Assembly (NCBI GenBank): GCA_951812955.1
Contig: OX638340.1
Coordinates: 2,528,001 to 2,592,000, forward strand
DNA from: an uncultured Gemmatimonadota bacterium
GTDB lineage: Bacteria; JAAXHH01
Reading direction: 5' to 3'
DNA: 64,000 nt
The translations under genes and the position numbers were made by a program. The notes beneath the pieces were generated by a model, which did no database searches, had not been told where the DNA came from, and saw nothing but the letters and a program-made list of their open reading frames with translations. Position 1 is the first letter of the stretch. Each line of letters begins with the position of its first letter. Of this stretch, positions 890-23,620 are shown in pieces.

Positions 890-2452
<1,563 letters not shown>

Positions 2453-2536
2453 AGTTATTGAAACTCGAGGTCGACTTGTCCGGCGCACGATGTGCACGCT
2501 GTCATGTTTTTAAAGTTGGGGGGCCTGTAGTACTGG

Positions 2537-2613
<77 letters not shown>

Positions 2614-2623
2614 TTGAAAGCCG

Positions 2624-2696
2624 GGGGATATAGCTCAGCTGGGAGAGCGCCGGCTTTGCAAGCCGGAGGTCACCGGTTCGATCCCGGTTATCTCCA
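2624..2696 (+). tRNA. tRNA-Ala: tRNA-Ala (anticodon TGC) in 16S-23S spacer
   Basis: ggggatatagctcagctgggagagcgc...ctttgcaag...ggttcgatcc...tatctcca. Has the G3:U70 identity pair. No encoded CCA. Confidence 0.95.
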
Positions 2697-2800
2697 CTGG
2701 GCACAGCAGACGAGTACAGGTGCCCGCTCTTTGACAATTACATAGGAATGACGGGAACGGCGTTGTAACATCGGAGCACTCAAGCACAGTAGCATTTTTT

Positions 2801-5866
<3,066 letters not shown>

Positions 5867-5921
5867 AATGCTCCAATTTATGTCGTCGTTCTCTCATTCC
5901 ATGTAATTGCCAACCCATTTC

Positions 5922-6040
5922 TTCCGGTGGCGATAGCGGAGGGGAAACACCTCTTCCCATTCCGAACAGAGTAGTTAAGCCCTCTTGCGCCGATGGTACT
6001 GCTTGGGTGACCTTGTGGGAGAGTAGGACGCTGCCGGGGG
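5922..6040 (+). rRNA. rrf: 5S ribosomal RNA
   Basis: tccggtggcgatagcggaggggaaacacc...ccgaacagagtagttaagcc...gcgccgatggtactg...gggagagtaggacgctgccggg. Confidence 0.9.
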
Positions 6041-6048
6041 ATGCATTG

Positions 6049-6082
6049 AAGGCGCTCGATTCATTTCGAGCGCCTTTTTTGT
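6049..6082 (+). terminator. rho-independent terminator after 5S, possibly bidirectional for the convergent ABC ATPase gene
   Basis: Stem ggcgctcga / tcgagcgcc with a 6-nt loop, followed by tttttt gttt. Confidence 0.6.
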
Positions 6083-6147
6083 TTGGGGCTAATGAAAGCT
6101 TTAGATCGCTAGCGTAGTCTGGTTGTCTGGCCAGGTCCGGTCGTCGT

Positions 6148-6822
6148 TTACGCGGCGGTGTTTACAATGCGTCCGTCGAAGAGGCGGATGATCCGGTGGG
6201 CGTGATCGGCCAGAACCTGGTCGTGGGTCACCATGATGATGGTCGTGCCCGCCTCGTTGAGGCCGTTTAGCAGTTCCATGACCTCCGAGCCGTTGGCAGA
6301 ATCCAGGTTACCCGTCGGCTCATCCGCCAGGATCAGCTTGGGATTGCCGATGACCGCCCGCGCCACGGCTACGCGCTGTTGCTGGCCGCCGGAAAGCTGC
6401 TGCGGGAAGTGATTACGCCGGTGGGGGATCTGCATGTGGTCCATCGCCGCATCCACCCGTTCCTTGCGCTCCTGCTTGGACGTGCCCAGGTAGATCAGCG
6501 GAAGCTCGATGTTCTCGTAGACGGTCAGTTCGTCGATCAGGTTGAAGCTCTGGAACACGAAGCCGATGTTGTTCTTGCGCAGATTGGCTCTTTGCCGCTC
6601 GGAGTGGCCGGACACTTCCTGGTCCAGGAAATGGTATTCCCCGCCCGTAGGGTTGTCGAGAAGGCCGAGGATGTTGAGCAAGGTGGACTTGCCGCAACCC
6701 GACGGCCCCATGACCGCCACGAACTCGCCCTGGTCCACGGCCATGCTCACGTCGTTCAACGCCGTCGTCTCCACCTCTTCGGTCGCATAGAGTTTCTGCA
6801 AGTTGCTGGTCGCTATCATCAC
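6148..6822 (-). CDS. ABC transporter ATP-binding protein, MacB/LolD family (copy A)
   Basis: Walker A GPSGCGKST, Q-loop, signature LSGGQQQRVAVARA, Walker B ILADEPTGNLD, H-loop VTHD. About 95% aa and ~92% nt identical to 13626-14297. Confidence 0.9.
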   Translation of the reverse strand: MMIATSNLQKLYATEEVETTALNDVSMAVDQGEFVAVMGPSGCGKSTLLNILGLLDNPTGGEYHFLDQEVSGHSERQRANLRKNNIGFVFQSFNLIDELTVYENIELPLIYLGTSKQERKERVDAAMDHMQIPHRRNHFPQQLSGGQQQRVAVARAVIGNPKLILADEPTGNLDSANGSEVMELLNGLNEAGTTIIMVTHDQVLADHAHRIIRLFDGRIVNTAA

Positions 6823-7014
6823 ACACCCCTTTTGCAGTTTATCGGTATGCGTCGCACCTTAATCATTCGACTTGTGTGCGATGCGCATTGTTTCGTCGCG
6901 ATGTTGTGCATGCTTGTAAATGCTCTGCTTCACTAAGTGTTCGAGTGAGGGCGAAGGCGATTCGTGGAAGGCGGTGCTCCAGGATCAACGCTCTCAATAC
7001 TGAAGTGAAGAAGT

Positions 7015-7521
7015 TCAATCCGTACTATCCGGCAAATTCACTCCAAATTCCTTGATAAACCGCTCAAAGAAACCGGCCGACCTGTATTCCAACAGCACGT
7101 TTACAGGTTCTCCATCCATGCCCGATATGCCGAGCGGCTTTTCTCCCAAGAAAAATTCCAACCCAAGACTATCCACTTCCGGGTAACCGGATGACCGAAT
7201 AATCCACGCCGTGTCGACGACACCAGTTGCGTTCGAATGGACTCGAAGCAATACTTCTCCTTCGTTGATGAACTCGGGCGGAAGCGCTACGGTTAATGGC
7301 ATTAATGGTATTTCCCCATTTGAGCTCTCATCCTTGGAACGGAGAGTGTCTGATTGTCCTGTGCTATCCTGTTCCAGGTCGGTCATCGTCGTATCTATTA
7401 CAGTTTCGCCTTCCCGGTTCACATCGTCCTTTCCTTCACATGCCGTGTGACTCAGGATGAGGAAAAGCGACACCAGCGCGCATAGACTGATCACAGTCTT
7501 TTTTACCATTTGTTGAGTCAT
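7015..7521 (-). CDS. secreted/anchored TonB C-terminal-domain protein (copy A)
   Basis: Start chosen at MTQQMVKK (ATG ends at 7521), with GGAGGA 7 nt upstream on the minus strand. N-terminal signal/anchor. C-terminal region PPEF..GEVLLRVHSNATGVVDTAWIIRSSGYPEVDSLGLEFF resembles the TonB_C fold. Paralog of 19516-19932. Confidence 0.55.
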   Translation of the reverse strand: MTQQMVKKTVISLCALVSLFLILSHTACEGKDDVNREGETVIDTTMTDLEQDSTGQSDTLRSKDESSNGEIPLMPLTVALPPEFINEGEVLLRVHSNATGVVDTAWIIRSSGYPEVDSLGLEFFLGEKPLGISGMDGEPVNVLLEYRSAGFFERFIKEFGVNLPDSTD

Positions 7522-7651
7522 CGACCTTGATCCTCCAGATTGCGACGTTTCCAGTCTATCGGTGGAATACCGGTTGTCCCGCTCAGAATCCATGGTCTTC
7601 GACGTATTTGGCATCAGACCGTAGCCCGGCACCGGCCGGCGTCTATATCGT

Positions 7652-8540
7652 CTACCGGCCCGTCACTTCGATTCGATTCCGGATGCCACGCGTGTAAGTC
7701 AGATGCCCGCGTCGGTCAATCCAGATCCCTTCGACGTGAGGCAAATCATCCAGTAACCGCTTTGAATTCTCGACTCCCATGACGTACGTCGCAGTCGCCA
7801 GGGCGTCCGCCGTCATGGCGTCCGGGGCGATGACCGTGGCGCTGAGCACGTGGTTCGATGAAACCCCCAGCCGTGGATTGAGAATGTGAGCGATACGAGG
7901 GCCCTGGTGCAGTCTATAGTTCTCATAGTCTCCTGCCTTCGCAATGGCCTCGTCTTCGAGTTCGACCATGGCGCATAGTGCATCCATCCGAGCGGTATGG
8001 TGAACGTATCCCGATGCGCCACAGGCGAGTAAGCTCGAGCCATCACAGGGCAAAGATGTCTCCTCCGGCCGAAACCAGGCCACATCGGACCCGGTGGTCC
8101 CGCAACGCCCCGACCGCCCGATCCACCATCTTGCCGATCTCCCTGATCCCGCCATCGGCTTCGAGGGCGACGAGCAATCGAACGTTGTTGCACACGGGAC
8201 AACGAAGATCCTCCTGTACCTCGTAAACGTACCCTACAGGATCGCCCTGTTCACCGAAAATCACGTAGCGGTCATATTCCCGAAAGTCCTCGTGCTTCCG
8301 GGATTCGGCCATGTGGAACGTAACCGAAACAAACTCCGAAACTGTCGGTTCATCGAGCGGTGGAAACAGGTTGGACATGCCGGCTAGCTCGTTTGACATC
8401 CTGTAAAGCGACGGGTCGGATCCGACTACATCGGTTCCGCCGGATCCCATGAGATAGATGAGATTCACGGCCACGACTACGGTGCCTGCTCCGGCGATCA
8501 ACACCACCGCCATTCGACTACGTTTCAAAAACTGCGCCAT
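7652..8540 (-). pseudogene. decayed fusion remnant: N-terminal part of FMN_bind-domain protein joined in frame to the C-terminal ~43% of ApbE, plus a frameshift
   Basis: ORF 8043-8540 aligns to the FMN_bind paralog (18779-19378) up to ...LLVALEADGGIREIG. It then continues directly as ApbE-like KMVDRAVGALRDHRVRCGLVSAGGD, matching ApbE residues ~170-195 of 17708-18709. The ITGATxSS flavinylation motif and the ApbE N-terminal half are missing. ORF 7652-8155 continues the ApbE C-terminus in another frame (frameshift near 8043-8070). Confidence 0.6.
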
Positions 8541-8582
8541 AGGTAAGTCACCCGAATGGACGTCTGAAGAACGTCGGAAACG

Positions 8583-11027
8583 CTACTCGTACCTCAACGC
8601 TTCAACAGGATTCGACCGCGCCGCTTTGAGGACGTGTAGGCCGACCGTGGAGGCCGCTACGGCAAGAATGGCCAGGCCCACCAGGACAAAGAGCGCCGGG
8701 TTGGGCGCAATGCGATAGGCGAAGTCACGCAGCCAACTTTCCATGACGAGGTAGGCGATCGGCCAGGCGATGACGCTCCCCGCAATGGCCATGATCACGA
8801 ACTCTTTCGACAGAAGCTGTACAAGTTGCGCCCTGGTCGCCCCCAAAATCTTGCGAACGCCGATTTCCTTCGTTCGCTGGTGCACGGTGAGGGAGACCAG
8901 GTTGAATAGCCCCAGGAAGGTCAGCACAATGGCAAGCAACGCGCATATTCCGAGGAGCGTGCCAAGGCGTTCTTCAGCCAAATACAGCTGGTCTATATCG
9001 TCTTCGAGAAAGGAATAGACGAGCGGGATTTCCGGGTAATGGGATCTCCAGACGCTATTGAGGTCCTCGAGCGCGGAGGCCGTACTCCCAGGTTGCAGTC
9101 GAACGCTCATGTGTTCGCCAAAGGAACTGCTTAAGAATACCATGGGCTCGACGGGCTGGTAAAGAGAACGAAAGTGGGTGTCTTGAATCACGCCGACGGC
9201 TCTGCCGCGCTGGACGTACTGCGGTAAGACGATTTCGATCGTCTTGTCCAGGGCCACTTCAGCGGAACTCCATCCCAGATGCCGGACGGCCGTTTCATTC
9301 AGGACTACCTCGAATACGGCGAACGGATTGAACATCCTCATATCTCTTGGCTTCAGATTCGAGCCCAGCACCAGGCTTATGTCCAGGGTCTCGAAAAAGT
9401 CGTGCTCCACGTTCACTATGCGGATAGACGAGGATACCGGCATATCGCTGTCGTCCCCGCGTCGAACCATGGTTTCCCCGATCATGCCCCTCCCCGGCGC
9501 GAGCCCGGGAACGTAATCCGACAGGGAGACGCCCTCGATGTACGGTGACCGCAGCAACTCGTTCTGGAATCCATCGGAGGATCTAGGATTAAACTGTTGG
9601 GAGCCTTCAGAAGAGCTTGATTCAATGGCCTCCACGAAGAATCCCGATATGAGGGGAACGACTATCACATTGGATTTTTCGAAGCCCGGAGGTTCGTTCA
9701 TCATGAACCGCAACTGGCTGTAGACCACACCCGTGCCGATGATCAGGATGGCGGAAAGGGCGAACTGGACCGTGATAAGAATACGCTTCACAAAGGGATA
9801 GTCGATCGCCTGGCTCAACCGGCGGCTAAGTGCGTCCATCGGCCGGTATCCAGACAGAACCATGGCCGGAAAACTCCCCGAGAATGCCCCCACGAGGACT
9901 GAAATGGCGATCAGACCAAGCCATATGTCGAGGTGTTGTATAAAACCCATGGACAGTGCCTTCCCAGTCACGGCGTTGAAGGCTGGAAGCGAAAGCCGGG
10001 CAAGCAGAACCGCCAGGACGAGTACCAGGCCTGAGATCATTACGGACCCGCTCAGATACTGCACGACAATACGTGAACGGTTCGCGCCGTACACTTTCAT
10101 TAGGCCCACTTCCTTCGCGCGGGCTGTCGACTGAACCATAGACAGATTGATGAAGTTGATGCAGGCGATCAGCAGCAGGAAAACGGCCCCCGTCATGAGG
10201 GTGTAGAGATAGGCCACACTGCTGTTCGCCTCGAGTTCGTTGAGTAGATTGGAACGCAGGTGAATCGCGGTCAGCGGTTGAAGGGAAAACCGGTAGTCCC
10301 GGATGCTCTCCCGGTTCACGGGCTTGATCTCGGTGTCGAAGTAAGCCTGGAACTTGGACGTCAGTTCCGGCACCAGGCTCTGATCGTGCAAACGCAGGTA
10401 CGTATAGTAGGTTGCGCTCCACCAGTTGTCCATGAACTGCAATTCCGTTCCGAAAGACAGGAACATGTCCGCGGTGAAATGCGTATGGCCCGGGAAGTCC
10501 TCCATGACGCCCGTGATGGTAAAGCTGTACGTGTTGTCCAGGCGCATCACCTCGCCCATGGGGTCCACTTCGCCGAAGTACTTCCTTGCCATCGATTCCG
10601 AGATGACCGCTTTGTTCTGCCCCTCCAATGCGGTGGCGGGATTCCCCTTGAGCAGGGGGATGGTGAAAACGTCGAATAGCGAAGGCTCGGTCCAGTAGAC
10701 CCGGTCTTCGTAGAACTCCCGGTCACCGAACCGTATAAGCCAAATGGCCCGAGTCGCCCGCATGCGGACAGCGCTTGCTACTTCCGGAAAGTTCTGTTTC
10801 AGCGTGGAAGCCGCTGCGCCCGGCGTGCGCGCGTTGTTGCCATTGATCAGCCGATAGACCTGCGGAGCGTACCTGTGGTGTGTATCGTAGGTCCATTCGT
10901 CCTTTATGTACAATAGCGTGAGTACGCACGCGGCCATGGCGATGGCCAGCCCCGTGACGTTGATGGTCGTATGGGATCTTTGCTTGAGCAGGGCTCTGAC
11001 GGCTATTCTGAGGTGGTGGGTGAACAT
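8583..11027 (-). CDS. ABC transporter permease, double FtsX-domain MacB-like (~814 aa, copy A)
   Basis: Start MFTHHLRIAVRALLKQ aligns with paralog start MELPHHLKISTRALLKQ. Two FtsX-like TM bundles with large periplasmic domains. Lies 13 nt downstream of the TPR gene. About 65% aa identity to 14447-16864. Confidence 0.85.
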   Translation of the reverse strand: MFTHHLRIAVRALLKQRSHTTINVTGLAIAMAACVLTLLYIKDEWTYDTHHRYAPQVYRLINGNNARTPGAAASTLKQNFPEVASAVRMRATRAIWLIRFGDREFYEDRVYWTEPSLFDVFTIPLLKGNPATALEGQNKAVISESMARKYFGEVDPMGEVMRLDNTYSFTITGVMEDFPGHTHFTADMFLSFGTELQFMDNWWSATYYTYLRLHDQSLVPELTSKFQAYFDTEIKPVNRESIRDYRFSLQPLTAIHLRSNLLNELEANSSVAYLYTLMTGAVFLLLIACINFINLSMVQSTARAKEVGLMKVYGANRSRIVVQYLSGSVMISGLVLVLAVLLARLSLPAFNAVTGKALSMGFIQHLDIWLGLIAISVLVGAFSGSFPAMVLSGYRPMDALSRRLSQAIDYPFVKRILITVQFALSAILIIGTGVVYSQLRFMMNEPPGFEKSNVIVVPLISGFFVEAIESSSSEGSQQFNPRSSDGFQNELLRSPYIEGVSLSDYVPGLAPGRGMIGETMVRRGDDSDMPVSSSIRIVNVEHDFFETLDISLVLGSNLKPRDMRMFNPFAVFEVVLNETAVRHLGWSSAEVALDKTIEIVLPQYVQRGRAVGVIQDTHFRSLYQPVEPMVFLSSSFGEHMSVRLQPGSTASALEDLNSVWRSHYPEIPLVYSFLEDDIDQLYLAEERLGTLLGICALLAIVLTFLGLFNLVSLTVHQRTKEIGVRKILGATRAQLVQLLSKEFVIMAIAGSVIAWPIAYLVMESWLRDFAYRIAPNPALFVLVGLAILAVAASTVGLHVLKAARSNPVEALRYE

Positions 11028-11040
11028 GATCGGGTGCTCC

Positions 11041-13503
11041 CTACGGTTCCAGGACAAGAAAGTTGACCGACTTGAAGACGCGCTGATCAGCGTGCCGGTC
11101 CGTCAGCGTCACGGTCAGCACATACTCCCCGGCTTCGAGATCCGTGGTGTCCATCGCGGTGTATTCAGCCTCTTCCGCTGAACTCCCCTCGCCTTCGAAG
11201 AAGGACATCACAGTCTGCATGTCGTCCGGCCTTCTGGCCCTGCGGTTCCTCAGTGCGGGCATGCCCAGGGGCGTGATTTCGTAAAGTGTCTCGTAGGAAG
11301 TGCGTCCGGCGTTGCCTAAATCCAGGTTGTACAATTCGTAGTAAACGTAAACGGGGTTTCCCCGAATGTAGAGCCGTCCCGGATTGGGCGTGATATTCAA
11401 CCCCTTGCGCACAAAGGGGCCCTGTACGCCTGACGGCGTGATGAGGGTGGCCAGCTTGAGATCGCTGATGAGCAGGTCGCGGCCGCGGTAGTCGGACAGC
11501 GTGACTGGCTTGCGATACACTCCGACCCGGCTCGTTGTCTCGTCCCGCACCTGGACTGCCAGCGTGAAACTACCCGACGGCGCGACAACGCTTTCAGGCA
11601 GGGTATACACCGGAACTTTCACGTTGCTTTCAGCCATCATACGCTTCGGCCTGTCGAAGGGACCGAAACCGAACTCGTGGGTGAACTGGGGGCTCATGGT
11701 CGAATCACGCAGGGTGACCAGGTGCGCGAGCCGGGTGCTGTTACCCCTGCCGTCCGAGACATCGCCGAACTGCCACACGGGGATGCTGTAGGACAGGTCC
11801 AGTTCCGTCGCGCCGTTGTCAGCCCTGTAGCTTACGGCGTCGAAGGCATATTCGAGTGGTTCTCCCCCGAAGTCGTGCAGGAATTCCTCGGGACTGCGCT
11901 TGATCAGGTTCTCGGCAACTCGTTGAGGATGATGGGTATCGTTTCGACGCATCAACTCGAAACCCGTGATGTCACCAAACGAATCCCCACCTTCATAGAT
12001 TGTCTGAAGTGGATAATCGAATTTCCCACCGCCCATCTGGTCCACGAAAAACAGTTCAAGATTATGCTGTACGTAAACCCAGCTTTCGACCTTGTACGAT
12101 TCTCCGACCAGACGTTTGAGTAACTCGAATGGATTGCTCTCCGACGAGCTCCCCCAGAGATCCACCGATCCCAAATCGAATCCCTGGAGCTGCATGATCT
12201 CCTCATCCAACAACGCCACCGGATCTCCCCTGCCCACCCGCAACACGTAGCCGGACTGCATATTCCGCACGCGTATTGCGTCCACGGCAGGAATCGCCGA
12301 CGGCTTGAAAACGGAAAAGGTGTTCCCATGCCTGCGCAGCAAGAAGTTGCTACGGTCATCCGGCGTACCGTATCGAACGTGAATCTCCCCGCGGCGGTCA
12401 AAGGGATACTGGCCCTCTGAGAAATGATTGCGGGCGTACAGTACGCGCCGGTAGTGTTCCACCAGGCGCTCGTTTTCGACGGTGGCCGGATTGGAATCCC
12501 GTGCGTTCCAGAAGGTCTGCCACAGCGCGTCGCGTTCCGGTCCTTCCACAGCCTCCCAGGTCTTCAATTCATCGGGAGGCGCGACATGTCGCAGGTCCCG
12601 GTACACCGCCTGCTCATCGGGATCGAGACCCGATATATAGGTCTCCAGGGCTTCCTGCAATCGATCGAACCCCCGTTCAGTCGAACCCGAAAGCATGCTG
12701 AACTGAAGCTGCAGGGTCCTGACCTCGTCCGCGACGGCATCTCCTGATTCTTCGACCAACTGTCCCAGGAGTTCAGCACCTATTTCGAACGCTTCGGCAC
12801 GAAGACACACATTGGTAAACCGCTCGAAGGCCCGACGGTGTTTGGGGTTTACCCGGTACTGGTTGAAATAGGCGGCTATCGCTTTTTCGTAGTCCGGCAA
12901 CGGGGGACTTTCATAACATCGTCCCAGTTGATAGTAGGCGTCCTCATGGGATGGATTCAGCTCTACGACCTTGAGGAAATACGTCCTGCCATCCCGGTCG
13001 CTGCCCACGATGGTATCTACTTTTTTATCATTCATGAAGGACATGCCCAGGTAGTACTGGGCGTCCGCGTTGTCCGGATCCAGGCGGATCGCGGTACGCA
13101 ACGCGTTGCGGGCATCCAGCTTTCTGTTTTGCAACTTCAGGTAGGTCTTCCCCAATCCGATGTGACCAGGCGCCCATTTTTTGTCCTGCCGCACTGCGCT
13201 CCTGAACGAACTCAACGCCTCACGGTAGTCGCCCAATTCATACCGCGCCATTCCGAGCCAGTAGTGGGCGGGCGCCGAATCCCCGTCAGCCTTGACGGCC
13301 ATTAGGAAGTACGGCAGCGCTTCCGCGTATCGTCCCTGTTGGTAAAGTGATTTGCCTTTTTCGTGGGCTGGCAGATCAATATCGGATACGGCCGATTGCG
13401 GCGGGGAAGTCCAGGTCTGGGAATGGCCGGGTAAACTCAGTGCAAGCGCGGCGATTGTAAGAAGCAGGCGGACGTACACGTAGTGCCTCTTTGGACGAAT
13501 CAA
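11041..13503 (-). CDS. secreted TPR-repeat protein with C-terminal GWxTD-like domain
   Basis: N-terminal signal peptide. Several TPR motifs (AHYWLGMARYELGDYREAL, AQYYLGMSF, AYYQLGRCY). The central segment RRGEIHVRYGTPDDRSNF resembles the GWxTD family. Abuts the permease gene. Confidence 0.6.
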   Translation of the reverse strand: MIRPKRHYVYVRLLLTIAALALSLPGHSQTWTSPPQSAVSDIDLPAHEKGKSLYQQGRYAEALPYFLMAVKADGDSAPAHYWLGMARYELGDYREALSSFRSAVRQDKKWAPGHIGLGKTYLKLQNRKLDARNALRTAIRLDPDNADAQYYLGMSFMNDKKVDTIVGSDRDGRTYFLKVVELNPSHEDAYYQLGRCYESPPLPDYEKAIAAYFNQYRVNPKHRRAFERFTNVCLRAEAFEIGAELLGQLVEESGDAVADEVRTLQLQFSMLSGSTERGFDRLQEALETYISGLDPDEQAVYRDLRHVAPPDELKTWEAVEGPERDALWQTFWNARDSNPATVENERLVEHYRRVLYARNHFSEGQYPFDRRGEIHVRYGTPDDRSNFLLRRHGNTFSVFKPSAIPAVDAIRVRNMQSGYVLRVGRGDPVALLDEEIMQLQGFDLGSVDLWGSSSESNPFELLKRLVGESYKVESWVYVQHNLELFFVDQMGGGKFDYPLQTIYEGGDSFGDITGFELMRRNDTHHPQRVAENLIKRSPEEFLHDFGGEPLEYAFDAVSYRADNGATELDLSYSIPVWQFGDVSDGRGNSTRLAHLVTLRDSTMSPQFTHEFGFGPFDRPKRMMAESNVKVPVYTLPESVVAPSGSFTLAVQVRDETTSRVGVYRKPVTLSDYRGRDLLISDLKLATLITPSGVQGPFVRKGLNITPNPGRLYIRGNPVYVYYELYNLDLGNAGRTSYETLYEITPLGMPALRNRRARRPDDMQTVMSFFEGEGSSAEEAEYTAMDTTDLEAGEYVLTVTLTDRHADQRVFKSVNFLVLEP

Positions 13504-13625: not shown

Positions 13626-14297
13626 TTACGCGGCCTCCGTCACGATCCGTCCGTCGAAGAGCCTGATGGTCCGGTGGGCGTGGTCGGCCAGCGCCTGGTC
13701 GTGGGTCACCATGATGATGGTCGTGCCCGCCTCGTTGAGGCCGTTGAGCAGTTCCATCACCTCGGCGCCGTTGGCCGAGTCCAGGTTACCCGTCGGCTCG
13801 TCCGCCAGGATCAGCCTGGGGTTGCCGATGACCGCCCGCGCCACGGCCACGCGCTGCTGCTGGCCGCCGGATAGCTGCTGCGGGAAGTGGTTCCGGCGGT
13901 GGGGGATCTGCATGTGCTCCATCGCCGCGTCCACCCGTTCCTTGCGCTCCTGCTTCGACGTGCCCAGGTAGATCAGCGGCAGTTCGATGTTCTCGTACAC
14001 GGTCAGCTCATCGATCAGGTTGAAGCTCTGGAAGACGAAGCCTATGTTGGCCTTGCGCAGGTTGGCGCGCTGCCGCTCGGAGTGGCCGGACACTTCCTGG
14101 TCCAGGAAATGGTACTCCCCGCCCGATGGATTGTCGAGGAGACCGAGGATGTTGAGCAGGGTGGACTTGCCGCAGCCCGAGGGTCCCATGACCGCCACGA
14201 ACTCGCCTTCGTCCACGGCCATGGTCACATCGTTCAGCGCCGTCGTCTCTACCTCTTCGGTCGCGTAGAGTTTCTTGAGATGTTCTGTCCTGATCAT
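13626..14297 (-). CDS. ABC transporter ATP-binding protein, MacB/LolD family (copy B)
   Basis: Start MIRTEHLKKLYATEEV (ATG ends at 14297) chosen by alignment with copy A. Same Walker A/B and signature motifs as copy A. Confidence 0.9.
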   Translation of the reverse strand: MIRTEHLKKLYATEEVETTALNDVTMAVDEGEFVAVMGPSGCGKSTLLNILGLLDNPSGGEYHFLDQEVSGHSERQRANLRKANIGFVFQSFNLIDELTVYENIELPLIYLGTSKQERKERVDAAMEHMQIPHRRNHFPQQLSGGQQQRVAVARAVIGNPRLILADEPTGNLDSANGAEVMELLNGLNEAGTTIIMVTHDQALADHAHRTIRLFDGRIVTEAA

Positions 14298-14446
14298 GGT
14301 GCGCTCCCGTAGTGTGGTAATACTCCGTATCCACGCATGCCATTTCGGAATCGTTCCTAATATCAAAGTAGCAAATGAAGAGGGTTGCAATTCCAGGTCG
14401 GAGAGATTAACTCCATAGATTGTGCGACTACGTTCATGCTGGAGAA

Positions 14447-16864
14447 TCACTCATACCTGAGCGCATCTACCGGGTTCAACGGTGCTTCTTTTGTAACATG
14501 GAAGGCAATCGTAGCGATGATTACTAACAGAATCCCCATGCTTACCAAGATGTAGAGGCTAAGGGGTGGAGAAACTCGATATGCGAAATCTTGTAACCAA
14601 ACGGCAGTAACCAAGTACGCCAACGGCCACGCTACCAGATTGGCGATCGCTGCCATAACTACAAACTGTCTAGACAGCAACTGAGTCAATTTCATAACTG
14701 TAGCACCCAGGGTCTTGCGTATGCCTAATTCCTTCGTTCTCTGTTTTGTGGTCAGGGAGACCAGGTTGAAAAGTCCCAGGAATGTCAAGATAGTAGCTAA
14801 GATGGTACAGACACCTATAAGCGAACCTAGACGTTTCTCCGGTACGTAAAGTCGATCAATATCGTCCTCCAAGAGGGAATAGATAAATGGAATTTCAGGA
14901 AAATAAGACTGCCAGGTAAGATCTAGGTAACTTAACGCAGATTCCATTTTCCCATCCTGAAAGCGCACCATCATGTGTTCGCCATTACCGTTCGTGAAAA
15001 CCATCGGTTCAACAGGCTGATAAGACGACCGGAAGTGGGCATCCGCAACGACACCTACAACCCTGCCTCGTTGGGTGATCTGAGGGTATACGATATCTAT
15101 CGTCTGGTCTACTGCTGACACTGGAGAAGTCCAACCTAGGTGGCGTACTGCCGTTTCGTTGAGAACAAGCTCGATTACGGGCAAAGGCCCAAAAGTCGAA
15201 TATGTAGCAAGACTCCTGTGCCTCAAAAAGCGTCCGTGTACCAGCTGTAAACCCAGTGTGTTTATGTAATCGTGCTCAACGCCCACAAATCGTACGGATC
15301 TGGAATTCCTCAGACTGTTTCCTGCCCGAGTTCGAACCATCCCATCACCCATTGTACCACGGGCAGGTTCAAGTGCCGGCACATAAGTTGAGAATGAAAC
15401 GCTGAGTACATCTGGCGATCTCAACATATCGTTTTTGAATCCGCTAGGTGGAACTAGTATTCCGCCTGGGAAGAAGCCTGTTATCAGGGGTACATTGACT
15501 ACATTTGATTCGTCAAAACCCTGGGGTTTGGTCAACATGTATTGAATCTGGATGTAGACCACGCAGGTGCTGATAATCAGAATAGTGGAGAGAGAAAACT
15601 GGATGATGATGAGCATCCGTTTCACCAGTGGAAAGTCCACTGAATGGCTGATTCTGTTTCCAAGAGAAAAGAGAGGGTGTACTCCTGACATAACCAAAGC
15701 CGGAAATCCTCCTGAAACGACTCCAACGATTATCGCAACGACAACTATCCCAAGCCAGATTCCAAAGTCTTCAGTAACGCCAAAAGAAAGCGTTTTACCT
15801 GTCAGCCAATTAAATGATGGCAGTGCAAGATAGGTCAAAATGAGAGCTAAAAACAAAACCAACATCACCATGGTTAAGGATGCAATCATATGCTGCCTGA
15901 TAATCTGAATTCGATCAGCACCGAAAATCTTAATCAAACCCACTTCCTTCATCTGATCAGCCGAATGAACCATAGACAGATTGACAAAATTGATTGAAGC
16001 GATGAGCAACAAGAAGATCGCACCTGAAATGAGCGCAAAGATGTAACTCACACTGCTATTCACCTCGAGTTCATTCAAAAGGCGGGAACGAAGGTGAATC
16101 TCCGTTAGTGGTTGAAGTATGAAACTATACTCCCGGATCCACGCGCTGTTGCTAGGTTTTACCGTTGATTCAAAATACCGCTGAAACTTGTCTTCGAGAA
16201 TTGAAGCCTGGTTACCTTCGTTCAACCGGACGTAGGTGTAATAGTCGGGACGCGACCAGTTGTCAATGTAGGATAGTTCATTGCCGAAACTCAGGAAGAA
16301 CCCAGCCTCGAAATGGGAGTTGACCGGGAAATCCTCCATTATCGCGGTAACGGTAAAATCCCATGTGTTGTCGGCTTGCAACACCTTACCGATGGGATCT
16401 TCCTCGCCAAAGTACTTTCTGGCGACTGACTCTGATATAACGACCTTGCCTATGCCATCCAACGCGTTGGTTTTGTTCCCCTTTACAAGTGGTATGGTAA
16501 AGACATCAAACAAGGAGGCTTCGGTCCAGTATACCTTATCTTCGTAAAAAGCACGATCACCGTACTGCATTAGCCAGATGGCCCTGGCCGCCCTTAAACG
16601 AACAGTACTTACAACTTCAGGAAAGTTCAGCTCAAGGGAACCTGAGGCGGCACCTGGAGTTCGGGCATTGGTGCCGTCAATCAATCGGAAGATCTCGTTG
16701 GCGTGTTCGTGGTGAGAATCGTATTTCAGTTCTTCCTGGATATACATCAGGGTTAAAATACACATAGCCATCCCGACAGTTATTCCGCTGATGTTTAATA
16801 TGGTATTGGATTTCTGCTTTAATAGTGCACGGGTGGAGATTTTCAGGTGGTGGGGTAGTTCCAT
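14447..16864 (-). CDS. ABC transporter permease, double FtsX-domain MacB-like (805 aa, copy B); low-GC
   Basis: Collinear with 8583-11027 over its whole length. About 47% GC, against ~62% for the flanks. Confidence 0.85.
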   Translation of the reverse strand: MELPHHLKISTRALLKQKSNTILNISGITVGMAMCILTLMYIQEELKYDSHHEHANEIFRLIDGTNARTPGAASGSLELNFPEVVSTVRLRAARAIWLMQYGDRAFYEDKVYWTEASLFDVFTIPLVKGNKTNALDGIGKVVISESVARKYFGEEDPIGKVLQADNTWDFTVTAIMEDFPVNSHFEAGFFLSFGNELSYIDNWSRPDYYTYVRLNEGNQASILEDKFQRYFESTVKPSNSAWIREYSFILQPLTEIHLRSRLLNELEVNSSVSYIFALISGAIFLLLIASINFVNLSMVHSADQMKEVGLIKIFGADRIQIIRQHMIASLTMVMLVLFLALILTYLALPSFNWLTGKTLSFGVTEDFGIWLGIVVVAIIVGVVSGGFPALVMSGVHPLFSLGNRISHSVDFPLVKRMLIIIQFSLSTILIISTCVVYIQIQYMLTKPQGFDESNVVNVPLITGFFPGGILVPPSGFKNDMLRSPDVLSVSFSTYVPALEPARGTMGDGMVRTRAGNSLRNSRSVRFVGVEHDYINTLGLQLVHGRFLRHRSLATYSTFGPLPVIELVLNETAVRHLGWTSPVSAVDQTIDIVYPQITQRGRVVGVVADAHFRSSYQPVEPMVFTNGNGEHMMVRFQDGKMESALSYLDLTWQSYFPEIPFIYSLLEDDIDRLYVPEKRLGSLIGVCTILATILTFLGLFNLVSLTTKQRTKELGIRKTLGATVMKLTQLLSRQFVVMAAIANLVAWPLAYLVTAVWLQDFAYRVSPPLSLYILVSMGILLVIIATIAFHVTKEAPLNPVDALRYE

Positions 16865-17226
16865 AACTGGCCTACAGATACTTAGTAAATGGTTCTAAGA
16901 GGGTTGTGATTAACGTCGAAGGGGCAGTTGAAAGTCTATAACTGCCTGTACGTTTAAACTCGTCCTCCGGTTTGATCAGCCCCAGACGTTCGCCGAGTGT
17001 TTTGGACTCGTCCACCACTGGCATTCAGCGAGGAGAGCATTTCCGTTGTCGGTGCGTGGAGCGTCGTTTGTTTTTTAACCTTGATGAATTCAATACCCAG
17101 ACGAAGTCGGTCAATCAACTCTTCCAACTGCTTGATTTGAATAGGCTAATAGAGGAAGTCACGGCGAAGGCTTCACTGGCAATATCGCGACTTTGATTCA
17201 GGTAGTTAATGTTGTCGTACGCATCT

Positions 17227-17400
17227 TAGTCTCCATGTGCGCTGTCAGGTTGGGTCTGTGACGGATTTTGTGTTACTGACTTTATCATGTTAAGGGCACT
17301 TTGTCTTCGTACATGATGATGAACTTGCTGGTGGCGGCCGTCCAGTTGGCGATGGGCCGTGTCTACCTTCGGGCCAGGTAGAGCAGTTTCCTGGCTACCC
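17227..17400 (-). mobile_element. IS256/mutator-family transposase C-terminal remnant (degraded, interrupted by stops)
   Basis: Minus-strand translation gives GVARKLLYLARR*TRPIANWTAATSKFIIMYEDKVPLN. This matches the conserved C-terminal LYLA.R....PI.NW..A.NqF.I.FedR block of IS256-family transposases. No intact ORF. Confidence 0.35.
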
Positions 17401-17707
17401 CGTCGGTGGGGAAGGCGCCGCCGCGCTATGGTCACCCCCAGTCTGCATGAGCACGTTCACCGCCCGTTACAATTCTGCTTCACATTGCATGGCGGCCAGC
17501 AATAGACTGGCAAAAGACGGTCAAAGGACAGGCGTAAACTTGTCGCTCTGAGTGCTATCCTTTACATAAACCTCTTCGACTCAGTCGTCTTCCACGGCTT
17601 CTTTATTCAGTCGACGTTTTCATCAAGCCCTTTAGATCCTCGTCGGTCTGTCTTGAAGCTACCGTGTATTTAACACCGCTCCCTTGTCATGAAGTACGAC
17701 CCACTCG

Positions 17708-18709
17708 TTAATTGACAATCTGCAATCTATTCTGGATCCCTCTTGTAAAAATAAACTGTCCATGCTGATCAATCCAGATCCCCTCGACGTATGGCATATC
17801 GTTCAGCAATCTCTGAGAACTTTCGATACCCATAACATAAGTCGCTGTGGCAAGCGCATCCGCTATCATTGCGTCGGGAGCGATAATCGTGGCGCTATGC
17901 ACGTGATCCGTCGAAGTCCCAAGTCGAGGATTGAGTATGTGTGTAATACGGCGACCTTGATTGATTTTGTAGTTTTCATAACCACCCGACGTCGCAACCG
18001 CCTCATCTTCGATTTCGACTGTGGCGCACAATGTATTGGGATGGTATGGAGACCGGATACCAATACGCCAAAGACGTTCAGGTTCTGGCCTTCCCATGGC
18101 AAGAACATCCCCACCTGCAGATATCAACCCGCATCTAATGTGGCGGTTTCGTAATACGTGAGCCATTCGATCCAATCCGTAACCTTTTGCTATTCCGCCA
18201 AAGTCTACCCCATAACCAGACGAAGCAATTCGTACTTTCTGTTCTTGCACTTGCAACTGATTAAAGTCTACCAGTTCGAGCATTTGCCGTAAGCTTCGAC
18301 TTGACGGATCACAATTATAAAATCCCCAGTGGTACATAATCGGTAGAATTGTCACATCGAAGGCACCATCTGTAATCTCGCCGATTCGTCTTGCTGTAGT
18401 CGCGACCTTGATAAAGTGGGGTGTTACGCCATGCCAAAGCCCATACATGTTGTTTACATGCGTAAGTTCACTGGTATTACGATAGAGGCTTAGCAGGCTG
18501 TCAATTTGAGCTAAAGCATCGAAGGCATCATAAATTGATTCTTTACTGTACTCGCATTCCTTGATTACAAGTTCTACTTTCGTCCCCATATGAATCTGAT
18601 GACGACGAACAAGCCTTTGCTTGTCTGACAATCCTGCGCCAAAATTGTATGGCACAAGTAACATTGCCGATGAAAGGCCGACCGATTTTATGAAATTGCG
18701 TCGCTTCAT
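17708..18709 (-). CDS. apbE: FAD:protein FMN transferase (ApbE family) with twin-arginine signal
   Basis: N-terminus MKRRNFIKSVGLSSAMLL has a Tat motif RRxFxK. ApbE-like blocks are present throughout (GIAKGYGLD, RCGLISAGGD, ADALATA). Low GC. Confidence 0.8.
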   Translation of the reverse strand: MKRRNFIKSVGLSSAMLLVPYNFGAGLSDKQRLVRRHQIHMGTKVELVIKECEYSKESIYDAFDALAQIDSLLSLYRNTSELTHVNNMYGLWHGVTPHFIKVATTARRIGEITDGAFDVTILPIMYHWGFYNCDPSSRSLRQMLELVDFNQLQVQEQKVRIASSGYGVDFGGIAKGYGLDRMAHVLRNRHIRCGLISAGGDVLAMGRPEPERLWRIGIRSPYHPNTLCATVEIEDEAVATSGGYENYKINQGRRITHILNPRLGTSTDHVHSATIIAPDAMIADALATATYVMGIESSQRLLNDMPYVEGIWIDQHGQFIFTRGIQNRLQIVN

Positions 18710-18778
18710 AGGGGCTATGCTATGATGGAATCTAGGACCATCTTTGTTTTCAAAAACAAGGCTACGTACAGAAAGCCC

Positions 18779-19378
18779 CTAACCTCGATGGATATGCCTA
18801 AGTCTATTGAGAGCATCAACAATATGAATCGAGCTTTTGGTAGCACCTGTGATTCCGTCGATATTTTCGCCTAATACGTAGAAATGTAGGTTCGGTTTCG
18901 ACTTAAATTGCCTCAGAAACCTCGTTTCATCCTCAACAGATAGTGGTTCACCGGAGAGTTCAAGGGGTTCAAGCACTCTGATATCATGGAGCCGACCCAA
19001 GTCATCGAGTGCGACGAGCATTCGGACGTTATTGCAAACAGGACATTTGAGATCCTCCTGTATTTCGTAGACGTAGCCAACAGTGTCGATTCGTTCGTCA
19101 AACACCACATATCGATCGTAACCTCTGAATTTCTCGTGTTTGCTAGAATAGCTTTCAGAGAAAGCGGATATAGTGAATTCCCTTAAGATACGATCGTCAA
19201 GTGGTGGGAATATGTCGGATGAAGTAATCGAACCACTTCCCGATCCCAAGTTCGACACGTGTGAGTAAATCACATCGTCATCACATGAATGTCCGGATAA
19301 GTAGACTATATTGACCACAGCAATTACTACTCCGGTTATAAGAAACATGGTTCTTTGAATGAGTTTGAAATTTCGCAT
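18779..19378 (-). CDS. membrane-anchored FMN-binding (FMN_bind) domain protein, predicted flavinylation substrate
   Basis: Start MRNFKLIQRTMFLITGVV (ATG ends at 19378) chosen by alignment to the copy-A paralog. N-terminal TM helix. C-terminal FMN_bind domain with flavinylation motif DGITGATKSS. CxxC (CPVCNN) within the domain. Confidence 0.7.
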   Translation of the reverse strand: MRNFKLIQRTMFLITGVVIAVVNIVYLSGHSCDDDVIYSHVSNLGSGSGSITSSDIFPPLDDRILREFTISAFSESYSSKHEKFRGYDRYVVFDERIDTVGYVYEIQEDLKCPVCNNVRMLVALDDLGRLHDIRVLEPLELSGEPLSVEDETRFLRQFKSKPNLHFYVLGENIDGITGATKSSIHIVDALNRLRHIHRG

Positions 19379-19515
19379 ACTACAACCGAACTCCATCTTC
19401 GTTTGAGCAGAAGAGGCCGAAGTTTGACTGGTTGTTCCTTGGGAGCCACGACATAGATTTGGGATTTCACTGACTGAACAGAATGTTGAGTTGAGGGGAG
19501 GCCGAGCCAATACAC

Positions 19516-19932
19516 TTATCTAAGGCGGAAGCTCATTGGAAAGTAGAATTGCGCAGATATAGGCTTTCCTTCCTTAGTCGCTGGCTTGAAAATCATCATT
19601 CGTGCTTGCGACAGTGCAAGACTATCTAGTTCTGGATGGGTCGACGATTCTATGATCGAAACAGATTCCACCGTGCCATCTGCCTTAGATCTTAAGAGAA
19701 GTACAACATCGCCTTCATTGCTGTACTTATCCTGTGGCGTGGGTCTAAACAATAGTCGTGGAGACGTATCCCAATCACCCACTTTAGCTATAACTTCAGT
19801 GTCAACTTGGGTTTCTTCCACCGGCACACTATCGTTCTCTACATTTCTGTCGTTACTGCAGGAGATGACTAACGAAAAGAGTACAATCTGGGACAGGCTG
19901 AATCGAAGCATTTGTGGAGCCCTTTCTGTCAT
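19516..19932 (-). CDS. TonB C-terminal-domain lipoprotein (copy B)
   Basis: Lipoprotein-type signal (..LFSLVISC, probable start at internal Met 19911). C-terminal segment GDVVLLLRSKADGTVESVSIIESSTHPELDSLALSQARMMIFKP is TonB_C-like. Paralog of 7015-7521. Confidence 0.6.
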   Translation of the reverse strand: MTERAPQMLRFSLSQIVLFSLVISCSNDRNVENDSVPVEETQVDTEVIAKVGDWDTSPRLLFRPTPQDKYSNEGDVVLLLRSKADGTVESVSIIESSTHPELDSLALSQARMMIFKPATKEGKPISAQFYFPMSFRLR

Positions 19933-20022
19933 ATGAGGTCGATTTCTGAACGCGAGGTAAATTCTGATTCATGTTCTAACTTTCAATGTGATTCAAAATC
20001 ACCAGTATAAGTTAAAACCTGA

Positions 20023-21735
20023 TCAATCGGGGCTATTGACCCGAGAAGTAAATCGAAAATTGTATTTAAATATCGTATTTTGGGGGACGATGAGTCGTGT
20101 TCCCATAGTGGGCATTAAACGAAACCTGCCTACAGACTCTAAGGCGATACTATCCAGTGCCGGATGTGCTGATGGTGTCTTTGTCCAAATCGAATCTACG
20201 ATACCATTTGAGTCGAAAAGTACGTTCACTGCAATTTCCATTTCGTCAAGATGACCGTACTCAAGAGGGAATGCACGACTCGTAGCCGTACCGAGGTGCA
20301 AGATTAGAGGTTCTTCATACGATGGCACAACATAGTCGTCAATGATCCCGTCGGTCACTAGTCGAATGTATTGGTCATATCCTTCCAAGGATCGCCAGGA
20401 ATCATCTTTTGTGAATCTGGCGATACTCTGTGCAAAAGATGTAAAAGGGAGGTCACCGATACGGCGAGGATGGGACATCATGTTGACGGATTGATTGTTG
20501 GCGTACGATCTGATAAAAAGACTCGATTCATCTATCGGCATGGAAGACACGTTATCGAAGTATCGTGTGAAAGTTGACCGGTCCGACCCGTTGGAATCAT
20601 GGGCTTCGGTGGACGGCATGTTAGTGAAGTATTGAGAGATATCAAATCGGTCTGACCCGCTGGATGCCTGCACTTCGCGATAGGTAGTTGTAGTCAGATA
20701 GTACTCCACATTTGAAACGTAGAATACGGAAATGGTCGCATCATGAGACCGGACGTAGTCTGATATACCACGCAAGGCTGTTTCACCGGCGAAATCACCT
20801 ACGACTGGAACGATCAAGTTCCTCCCGTGCAACTTCTTGACGACGTCAAATGCACTATCATCAGCAAGGAAGTTGGCTTGCTCCCCACTTATCGTTTCTG
20901 CAAGAATCAACTCCCGCAGACTCGGGAAATTAAAGGTTGCATCCCCCGGTGTTCCCAGATCGTACTGGATGTCTAACTGGCTCCTGAAGAAAGCCTGATA
21001 GACTCGTTCGACAGCTTTCATATCTTCCATCGAGTCTATGCCATACGAATGTAAATGGGACTTGATGACCCGGAGATTTCGCTCGTAGAGTTTTACATCG
21101 GGATCTATTCCGTCGAAATATGCGATCAGCGTTGCAACAGATGATTCACTTCGAGACCAGGGCCGGACCGGTCCTCCCTTAAATATCTCGGCCAGGTAGG
21201 AGAGATTCCGGTTCAATGGTTTGCTGAGCAGCCTAGACAGGAATTCAGCACTGTCGCTGGACTGAGCGAAGAGGGACTTGTAGATCAGGTGCAACAGCAT
21301 GTTATCGCGACGAATGTCAACCACGAAAGCCATGTGCGGCCTGGTCTCGGCGATGTAGGTAAAATTCTGTTCGGGGCCGACACCCACATAAACGCCACCG
21401 GAAACGTGCCGTTCGCGTAGTACGGCAAATGGATGCAGGTAAGAAGATTCGTTTGAGGTGAAATTGGTTGAATGAAAGGAGCCACCCGTCTCCGACAGTT
21501 CTCTAATCAGGTTCGAGAAGGCTGGCGTGGACAGTGAGTCCGGGAGGGCACCTGCTCTTGGATATGGCTTTACAGTCCTCTTGTTAGACCAATCAGAAGG
21601 ATTGTAACACTGGACTGCAAACAACATCACGACAACACCTGCCGTTATCCATGTTGTTGTTTTCCATATAACCATATCCGAGGATTTCCAAGCAGCTAAA
21701 GATTGACCTAAGTATTGTGAAAGTCTCTCAGCCAC
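20023..21735 (-). CDS. hypothetical membrane-anchored protein (570 aa) with C-terminal TonB_C-like domain
   Basis: N-terminal TM helix (WITAGVVVMLFAV). Large domain with a glycine-rich GVYVGVGPEQNFTYIA ... AFVVDIRRDNM segment. C-terminal ~80 aa (NGIVDSIWTKTPSAHPALDSIALESVGRFRLMP) resembles the TonB_C fold. Low GC. Confidence 0.5.
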   Translation of the reverse strand: MAERLSQYLGQSLAAWKSSDMVIWKTTTWITAGVVVMLFAVQCYNPSDWSNKRTVKPYPRAGALPDSLSTPAFSNLIRELSETGGSFHSTNFTSNESSYLHPFAVLRERHVSGGVYVGVGPEQNFTYIAETRPHMAFVVDIRRDNMLLHLIYKSLFAQSSDSAEFLSRLLSKPLNRNLSYLAEIFKGGPVRPWSRSESSVATLIAYFDGIDPDVKLYERNLRVIKSHLHSYGIDSMEDMKAVERVYQAFFRSQLDIQYDLGTPGDATFNFPSLRELILAETISGEQANFLADDSAFDVVKKLHGRNLIVPVVGDFAGETALRGISDYVRSHDATISVFYVSNVEYYLTTTTYREVQASSGSDRFDISQYFTNMPSTEAHDSNGSDRSTFTRYFDNVSSMPIDESSLFIRSYANNQSVNMMSHPRRIGDLPFTSFAQSIARFTKDDSWRSLEGYDQYIRLVTDGIIDDYVVPSYEEPLILHLGTATSRAFPLEYGHLDEMEIAVNVLFDSNGIVDSIWTKTPSAHPALDSIALESVGRFRLMPTMGTRLIVPQNTIFKYNFRFTSRVNSPD

Positions 21736-21771
21736 TTCTTTTGACTAAGAGACTCTCACGCCGGATCAGCC

Positions 21772-23055
21772 CTAACAACTTCTACCACCATTACAGTAAC
21801 AACCTACATAGCCCCACACATATGCATCCCCACAGTCATCATAATAACTACAATATACGCGATGGGCCAGGACCGCATAGGCAAAGGAGAAGGGCAACGC
21901 GCACTGCAACCCCACGTGGACGATTCGATCGAGCATCCAGACTATCACGGGTAGGGCTGGACCGGATGCCGGAACCAGACCCCAAGAGGACAGGAGCGTG
22001 CCGGGTTTCGTGATTGTCCACATCGGCGCGAGGATGAGGGCCAGGATGAATCCGGCCTCGATAATCTGGAGGCGTATGCGCTGTTGCTGGCTCGCCACGA
22101 AACGCTGGGCAATCAGTAGGCATCCTGTTAAGATAACAACGAGGAGAGGAAACATTGGAACGGGAATGGGCTCAACTATGCGGACGACGAACTGCGCAAT
22201 CTCATTATTCCAACCATGGGTGATGCTCAGTAAGTAGATCGAATGTAAGACTATCCACACAAAGAGAGGCGTCAGGATGAACAATGCTTTTTTTCGTAAC
22301 CATTCTCCAAAGACAGACGAACTTGGAAAAACAGTTAATATCTGAAAGATAAGAACAGTTTCCAGGATTGTTGCTAATACGACGATGTATATACTGAGCG
22401 ATAGTAACCAAACCGGCCATCCTGCGATCATGGGATGAAAGGCAGGAGACGATGTGAGCGCCGTAGCGAGGAAGAGCAACGCGCATCGAAAGGCGATGAC
22501 GTTTAGATGACTGCGGAATCCCATCCAAGTACCAAAACCTAACAGCACGATCGGGAAGATCAGAAAGGGTCCTCTTTGGAACCAGGTCATCTCCGCGACA
22601 CCCATCACAATCTCCTGCTGATCAACCTGTAGGGTGTAAGGTACCTCTTCGATCTCCTCAAGTGTCATGATACCGGTATGTATCCGATCTTCGCGAAGCC
22701 AGACGATTTCGATACGTTCTCCGGGTTGACTTTGCAAACGTGCCTGGAAATAGGCTTCTGGTCGTGATCTCAGGTCGATTCCATTTACCGATATGATCCG
22801 GTCGCCCGACTGTATTCCTGCCAGGTCGGCCGGACTTCCGTTCTCGATCTGTACTGCGATGATACCTTCGTCTTGGCGAATCCGGACGAGATGAAACCAC
22901 GTACCTTCCTGTAGATTGCTAACGGCGCTCTTCGTCAACCCCGGCGTTTGTATCATCTCGCTACCAAAAAATTGAATGCCGGGCGACCAGTGTTCGATCT
23001 GCGTGAATCGAACAAGTGTCCACGCCACCAGACCCAATTGCATGCATAGCAGCAA
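21772..23055 (-). CDS. PDZ-domain polytopic membrane protein with Cys-rich C-terminal tail
   Basis: N-terminal TM followed by a PDZ domain (GSPADLAGIQSGDRIISVNGIDL). About 8 predicted TM helices. Tail CSYYDDCGDAYVWGYVGCYCNGGRSC. Low GC. Confidence 0.5.
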   Translation of the reverse strand: MLLCMQLGLVAWTLVRFTQIEHWSPGIQFFGSEMIQTPGLTKSAVSNLQEGTWFHLVRIRQDEGIIAVQIENGSPADLAGIQSGDRIISVNGIDLRSRPEAYFQARLQSQPGERIEIVWLREDRIHTGIMTLEEIEEVPYTLQVDQQEIVMGVAEMTWFQRGPFLIFPIVLLGFGTWMGFRSHLNVIAFRCALLFLATALTSSPAFHPMIAGWPVWLLSLSIYIVVLATILETVLIFQILTVFPSSSVFGEWLRKKALFILTPLFVWIVLHSIYLLSITHGWNNEIAQFVVRIVEPIPVPMFPLLVVILTGCLLIAQRFVASQQQRIRLQIIEAGFILALILAPMWTITKPGTLLSSWGLVPASGPALPVIVWMLDRIVHVGLQCALPFSFAYAVLAHRVYCSYYDDCGDAYVWGYVGCYCNGGRSC

Positions 23056-23620
23056 GGCAAGTGTACAAACTATGAGATATCGATAGTTGAAAAACTTCAG
23101 TTGAGATCACCCCTGAGACTATGGACTGGATTCCGCAATACATGTTGCGTTGTGCCGACAATCGCCGTAAAGAGTTCAATTATAGACTATTCAGAGAAGA
23201 CGTGTCGGCAGCTTTGAAGAAATGTTACGAAACAGTAAGTGTCAAGAAAGTGCTGGTCACTGGTATTAGTCGTTACAAGGACCAGAACGAGGTCTTGTAG
23301 AAAATACTGGTCTAAACTAACACGGAATAGGAAAGGGAAGGTATTGCGAAACTATTGCTTGCGTTGTAGAACCGGCCATTCAACTCTGTGTGGTCGATTC
23401 AACCTGGCGGACCGCAGGTCGATTGGATTGTTCTTAAGGCTTTTTCAACTCGATTGTGTATCGTAGCCACGAGTTTTTAGCCGAAACAAAGCGACGCCCT
23501 TAAAACTTGACACCAGAAGCTGGATCGCAACATATTAGAGTTTTCCCGGTGAGTTGCCTTGTTTGAACTTTAAATGACTCGTAGAACGGAAGAGAGCGGT
23601 CCTGAAGAGGAGGAGTGTTC

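Follow-up and report, generated by a model that had tools for sequence, protein, structure and literature searches.

ApbE transferases move FMN from FAD onto the threonine or serine of a [S/T]GA[S/T] motif in an extracytosolic FMN_bind domain (PMC8238504, from which the motif definition used here is taken). An ApbE/Ftp gene (PF02424) and an adjacent FMN_bind gene (PF04205) form the standard substrate-transferase pair, and the intact genes considered below, both the orthologues in other genomes and a second copy (copy B) in the same DNA, are pairs of this kind with a TGAT that fits the motif. By homology, the ApbE of the intact pair would flavinylate a small, membrane-anchored, CPVCNN-bearing FMN_bind protein. 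The locus at positions 7652–8540 of the window (by which is meant the whole 64,000-nt stretch that was analysed) differs from such pairs in having no flavinylation site, in lacking most of FMN_bind and ApbE profile positions 1 to ∼145, and in being interrupted twice. It is very probably a unitary pseudogene, the remnant of the native A-type FMN_bind-ApbE pair of a conserved Latescibacterota ABC-transporter cluster. It resembles ordinary bacterial pseudogenes in its independent lesions, its intact syntenic orthologues and its excess of changes at conserved sites, and nothing essential sets it apart from them.

The cluster that houses the pair differs from the standard arrangement in adding a duplicated MacB/FtsX permease, an ABC ATPase, TonB_C, DUF7790 and a GWxTD/TPR protein. 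In the main flavinylation-cluster survey (PMC8238504), a search by term turned up neither FtsX nor MacB nor ABC transporters. The module permease falls below the cut-off for the ADOP family and gives a weaker match to the darobactin exporter DarB. RnfG/NqrC-type subunits offer another comparison: the FMN_bind protein of copy B matches the RnfG family weakly (E ∼3e-4, far below cut-offs), but the Rnf/Nqr partner genes are absent and the FMN_bind family here has an N-terminal CPVCNN region of its own. Throughout the FMN_bind family of these clusters (18779–19378 in the window; P0002–P0037) CPVCNN is invariant and lies just before the FMN_bind domain. The N-terminus of ApbE B, MKRRNFIK, is twin-arginine-like.

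Composition of the remnant

The remnant lies on the minus strand and consists of parts of an FMN_bind gene and of the ApbE gene downstream of it, where two minus-strand ORFs, 8043–8540 (165 aa) and 7652–8155 (167 aa), overlap in different frames. The intact paralogous pair, FMN_bind B (ORF 18779–19510) and ApbE B (17708–18709), which together span 17708–19510 on the minus strand, provided the tblastn queries against window 7400–8800. FMN_bind B residues 60–177 matched ORF 8043–8540 (50% identity, E 4e-36), ApbE B residues 171–222 matched next and in the same frame (57% identity, E 4e-15), and ApbE B residues ∼227–331 matched in the other frame, inside ORF 7652–8155 (E 2e-53). The initial annotation, made by inspection of the letters, had described a residue-by-residue alignment of the FMN_bind paralog with ORF 8043–8540, an uninterrupted switch to ApbE sequence at ∼8130, and a continuation of the ApbE C-terminus in a different frame (ORF 7652–8155). 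Formal alignment agrees in each respect and recovers the breakpoints, with the junction at 8126–8137.

Exact lesion coordinates were set by DNA alignment with the intact orthologues in L002 and L003. The A-type FMN_bind remnant occupies 8137–8540 (minus strand), as judged from the copy-B match, from 74–87% identity to intact PF04205 orthologues of 183–205 aa and from DNA alignment. It retains the ATG at 8540, a hydrophobic N-terminal segment, the CPVCNN-bearing N-terminal region and the first ∼17 residues of the FMN_bind domain, ending in ...EADGGIREI. Homology to FMN_bind stops at 8137 (...GGGATCAGGGAGAT) in DNA alignments with L002, L003 and L006, and homology to ApbE restarts at 8126 (GTGGATCGG...) in those with L002 and L003; the 10 nt between them, CGGCAAGATG (8127–8136, minus strand), can be assigned to neither gene. 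The sequence missing from the relic is 844 nt long in L002 and in L003, which the 10-nt filler reduces to a net loss of 834 nt; copy B as the reference puts the missing stretch at about 804 nt. A deletion of ∼0.75 kb had been proposed initially; the deletion itself stands, with its size corrected to these values. Its content was named correctly, as the flavinylation motif, the spacer and the N-terminal half of ApbE all lie inside the 844-nt interval, which in the orthologues comprises the rest of FMN_bind with its DGITGAT flavinylation site, a ∼120-nt spacer and ApbE codons 1 to ∼178. The putative N-terminal export region of ApbE (MKRRNFIK... in copy B, MNRRAFIK... in L002 and L003) falls within the deleted interval as well. 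Because the net loss is 834 nt, the FMN_bind-ApbE junction is in frame; such in-frame joining of two adjacent genes is a one-in-three coincidence.

The deletion would have been illegitimate, with one or possibly two events taking 844 nt and leaving the 10-nt filler. The best match of the filler within the deleted interval is 9/10 (11/12 when extended), at ATCGGCGAGATG in the ApbE N-terminal half of L002. Random 10-mers match as well, with at most one mismatch, in 8% of trials (P∼0.08), and the match in L003 is poorer. The match is not significant, and a two-deletion origin of CGGCAAGATG is no more than a possibility. Microhomology junctions at GAGATA/GGGATA and at GATCGG were also considered, and with the alignment checked by eye none of them yields the actual junction. 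A 35-mer across the junction had no match in JGI metagenome contigs; a 21-mer had six, which have only the seed in common, so no further carriers were found there.

Downstream of the junction, ApbE sequence fused in frame to the FMN_bind remnant runs through 8046–8126 (minus strand; VDRAVGALRDHRVRCGLVSAGGDIFAL; tblastn and DNA alignment) to a TGA at 8043–8045 (minus strand) that closes the 165-aa ORF. The aligned codon is GGA (Gly) in every intact relative, which makes this a nonsense substitution, and the change from GGA to TGA would have been a point mutation. Past the stop, ApbE sequence stays in the same frame for 17 codons (7990–8042, minus strand; WLELTRLWRIGIRSPYR; tblastn and DNA alignment), with unusual divergence from the orthologues over the first 18 nt. 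At 7982–7989 (minus strand) the DNA alignment shows GGATGGAT against a single GGAT in L003; this 4-bp tandem duplication, which replication slippage would have produced, moves the remainder into the frame of ORF 7652–8155. The frameshift had first been placed near 8043–8070, but the lesion at that site is the nonsense codon, and the true frameshift is ∼55 nt further on. The C-terminal remnant of ApbE, identified by tblastn, Pfam and alignment, then continues through 7652–7981 (minus strand) in the shifted frame to the native stop (DALCAMVELEDE...ADALATATYVMG...EVTGR), and is 91% identical to L003 at the nucleotide level. TGA is a normal stop codon in the window, where it terminates several long intact genes, and a reading of it as glycine (genetic code 25) was dropped for that reason.

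ORF 8043–8540 matched no Pfam family, the FMN_bind domain included, whereas copy B and the orthologues do match; an exact sequence look-up with its 165-aa product found no record. In ORF 7652–8155 the Pfam match is limited to ApbE profile positions 180–265 of 266. A full-length ApbE domain is absent from any single ORF, residues 1 to ∼178 being deleted and the rest split by the TGA and the 4-bp duplication, and all six frames of 7600–8600 are free of a [S/T]GA[S/T] motif. The remnant would encode neither a flavinylation substrate nor a flavin transferase, and its maximal product is at most a 165-aa membrane-anchored stub.

Orthologues, decay and alternative explanations

A protein search with the 165-aa ORF found ∼35 intact FMN_bind orthologues of 183–206 aa (63–87% identity), together with one near-identical fusion, P0001 (98%). 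The relatives are Candidatus Latescibacterota MAGs, in which the gene order is DUF7790, TonB_C, (TPR/GWxTD), permease (814 aa), FMN_bind, ApbE, a 168-aa TonB_C-like protein and ABC ATPase; in L002, L003, L004 and L005 the intact pair, FMN_bind (183–196 aa) and ApbE (325–326 aa), lies between the permease and the 168-aa gene. Module A of the window has the identical order, so copy A is a vertically inherited orthologue, conserved in synteny across Latescibacterota. Directly upstream of the relic is the duplicated MacB/FtsX-type permease of module A (8583–11057, minus strand), and downstream are a TonB_C-like gene (7015–7632, minus strand) and ABC ATPase A (6148–6822, minus strand), both of which are probably in the same operon as the relic. 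All three are intact, as had been noted for the flanking transporter genes from the start, and the 75 synonymous versus 35 non-synonymous changes of the permease on the window branch point to purifying selection. Lying between the intact co-oriented permease and the downstream operon genes, the remnant is probably still transcribed passively, and it would persist because it is flanked by co-oriented intact genes. A promoter and terminator scan of 6000–11200 gave counts equal to the shuffle expectation.

In L003 (12620–13150) and L004 (6140–6670) the ABC ATPase of module A has a frameshift at about residue 100 and is cut short at about residue 179 of 224, and the lineage with this broken ATPase has intact FMN_bind and ApbE genes. 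The presence of the lesion in two assemblies indicates that another component of the module is decaying in another lineage. A 229-aa gene call in L019 hinted that ApbE decay had recurred there, which tblastn refuted by finding a full-length ApbE in a single frame.

In an alignment of the ApbE C-terminal half (42 in-group sequences) the relic has seven unique replacements at columns that are at least 95% conserved (R>W, P>L, T>K, G>D, R>P, D>N and I>V), in addition to the stop; intact homologues average 1.9 unique replacements at such columns. In an NJ tree of the same region the relic falls inside the A clade and its branch is long. Parsimony counts with L002 as outgroup gave, for the ApbE part, 6 synonymous and 8 non-synonymous changes on the window branch versus 17 and 5 on the L003 branch (Fisher P=0.07). 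Relaxed selection on the relic is suggested, though not proven, by these patterns. The remnant protein is still ∼85% identical to its closest intact relative, and the closest intact sequences, those of L003 and L006, are ∼91% identical to it in DNA. The weak signal of relaxation would fit a fairly recent inactivation, and the lesions appear to postdate the split from the lineages that have intact copies (L003 and L006).

The counts for the N-terminal part of FMN_bind show no comparable shift, being similar on the window branch (8 synonymous/6 non-synonymous) and on the intact L003 branch (7/10), and in the 165-aa ORF the ATG, the frame and the 42-nt spacing after the permease are all preserved. 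These features speak for a fusion ORF retained as a functional truncated protein, whose membrane anchor and CxxC region work without flavin while the ApbE part alone is dead. Such a role is nevertheless improbable. The stub has no Pfam domain, most of the FMN_bind fold and the flavin site are gone, and its architecture is unique among 5.8 billion proteins apart from that of P0001. Moreover, in a second assembly, L001, the CPVC motif, elsewhere invariant, has Phe in place of its first Cys, and there is one further amino-acid change.

L001 is a 173.7-kb SPAdes contig (ENA assembly ERZ15614337) that is 98–100% identical to the window over ∼6.9–11.2 kb, with ∼2% divergence in the permease. It represents a distinct genome, with a different upstream gene set and an identity of 55–70% inside the TPR gene. 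Within the relic (∼0.9 kb) the two sequences have just two differences, both of which change an amino acid, and in L001 gene callers split the relic into products of 152 and 133 aa. A collapsed or chimeric join between the two genes, or indel errors, would have some basis in the setting of the locus, which is highly mosaic and adjoins an rRNA operon and paralogous modules; regions of this kind are prone to misassembly. However, this independent contig, which differs from the window elsewhere, has the identical junction, TGA and GGAT duplication. The common occurrence of the three lesions means that they are not assembly or sequencing errors, leaving an artefact very unlikely, and that they arose before the window and L001 lineages split. 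A check of the frameshift in other assemblies had been proposed in the initial annotation, and L001 supplies it for the deletion junction and the TGA as well. Least credible is a natural FMN_bind-ApbE fusion expressed by recoding (TGA read-through plus a programmed frameshift). Two features would favour it, the in-frame junction and the position of the TGA opposite a Gly codon. Against it, the DNA itself has neither the flavinylation motif nor the ApbE N-terminal half, TGA terminates other window genes, all relatives have two separate intact genes, and the sequence after the stop is locally scrambled. The three independent disabling lesions, found in both assemblies, bear out the early view of the locus as a non-functional relic; it is a real, reproducible and ordinary pseudogene.

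Module B and the mosaic surroundings

The relic was at first taken for the decaying copy of a duplicated module, the other copy being the B pair, whose FMN_bind protein has its TGAT at residue 221. The genes of module B are ordered DUF7790, TonB_C, FMN_bind, ApbE, an 842-nt gap, permease and ATPase, which differs from the order in module A. Copy A is 50–64% identical to copy B, with 50–58% in one comparison, and 70–87% identical in amino acids to its orthologues in other genomes. The GC content of the B pair is 44–46% versus 57–60% for the relic, and that of the modules as a whole is 44–48% (B) and 57–61% (A), the backbone having 60–65%. A search with ApbE B found just two B-type clusters (100% and 90% identity); the A-type orthologues are all at 60–65%, and the next families at ∼42%. 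In the NJ tree of the ApbE C-terminal half the B pair falls outside the whole A clade, relic included (bootstrap 73/100), with A plus B separated from the outgroups at 100/100. Module B would then be an anciently diverged paralogous cluster rather than the sister in a recent duplication. The part of the original reading that called the locus a non-functional relic holds, with three lesions common to L001. The part that made it the decaying copy of a duplication is not supported if a recent duplication is meant, as B is divergent, differs in gene order and GC content, and lies outside the A clade.

The distribution of the two modules varies. L001 has the A relic and lacks module B here, which means that the decay of A cannot be put down to B at this locus; L017, a TARA contig, has B and no A module at this position; and the join between ATPase B and the TPR gene in the window is found in L012 at 96% identity. 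A and B appear to be old paralogous modules, occurring in combinations that vary from genome to genome.

Module B forms a low-GC block (44–50%) at window 14400–23400 in the 60–65% GC backbone. The B modules of L012 and L017 are equally low in GC, which shows that this composition is intrinsic to the module and does not mark a chimera. The 842 nt between ApbE B and permease B (16865–17707) contain no convincing ORF; in the corresponding interval L012 has 844 nt and L017 has 467 nt. The stretch was considered as a decayed form of the 168-aa gene of module A and rejected, as tblastn gave no similarity.

Several other features of the surroundings are mosaic. A complete rRNA operon (16S, tRNA-Ile, tRNA-Ala, 23S and 5S; 890–6039) directly adjoins module A, and the end of the L001 contig falls inside this operon. 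In the TPR/GWxTD gene (11041–13503) identity to L001 falls from ∼98% to 55–70% upstream of ∼11340, which indicates a recombination breakpoint within the gene; the version in the window recurs in L012 at 96% identity. The ABC ATPases at 6148–6822 and 13626–14300 are 93% identical in amino acids and 88.6% in nucleotides, with GC3 of 0.82–0.84, and their partner permeases are 57% identical in protein. The likeness of the ATPases suggests gene conversion or unusually strong constraint.

The PDZ sensor histidine kinase at 21772–23055 is truncated, with 416 of 888 residues left in comparison with L012 and L017 and a breakpoint at ∼21854–21857. A 4.7-kb deletion there took the HisKA/HATPase half, two response regulators and two small ORFs, and in L013 an IS (DDE_Tnp_1) lies upstream of the same breakpoint. 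Sets of a PDZ kinase and two response regulators (629–4757 in L001; 821–4982 and 14963–19112 in L017) are of at least three paralogous types, ∼55% identical in amino acids. Their occurrence beside transporter modules suggests a family of repeated "supermodules" in these genomes.

Consequences for the cluster family

In module A of the window the role of the flavinylation pair is lost. On one tentative reading the module belongs to an undescribed Latescibacterota cluster family, made up of a PDZ sensor kinase with two response regulators, DUF7790 and TonB_C, a duplicated MacB/FtsX permease and an ABC ATPase, ApbE, and an FMN_bind protein that bears a CxxC. The relic would then be a natural knock-out in this family, in which either the redox pair and the transporter are independent of one another or paralogous modules such as B complement the loss in trans. 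As part of that reading, the window, where the permease and ATPase would still be under selection and the flavinylation pair is dead, may be the reverse of L003, where the ATPase is dead and the pair intact.

For annotation, the relic should be flagged as a pseudogene and not called as two short hypothetical proteins. The locus is plastic, with paralogous transporter/flavinylation modules gained, recombined and lost among close Latescibacterota relatives, and it points to a conserved, uncharacterised link of the ApbE/FMN_bind pair with a MacB-type ABC transporter.
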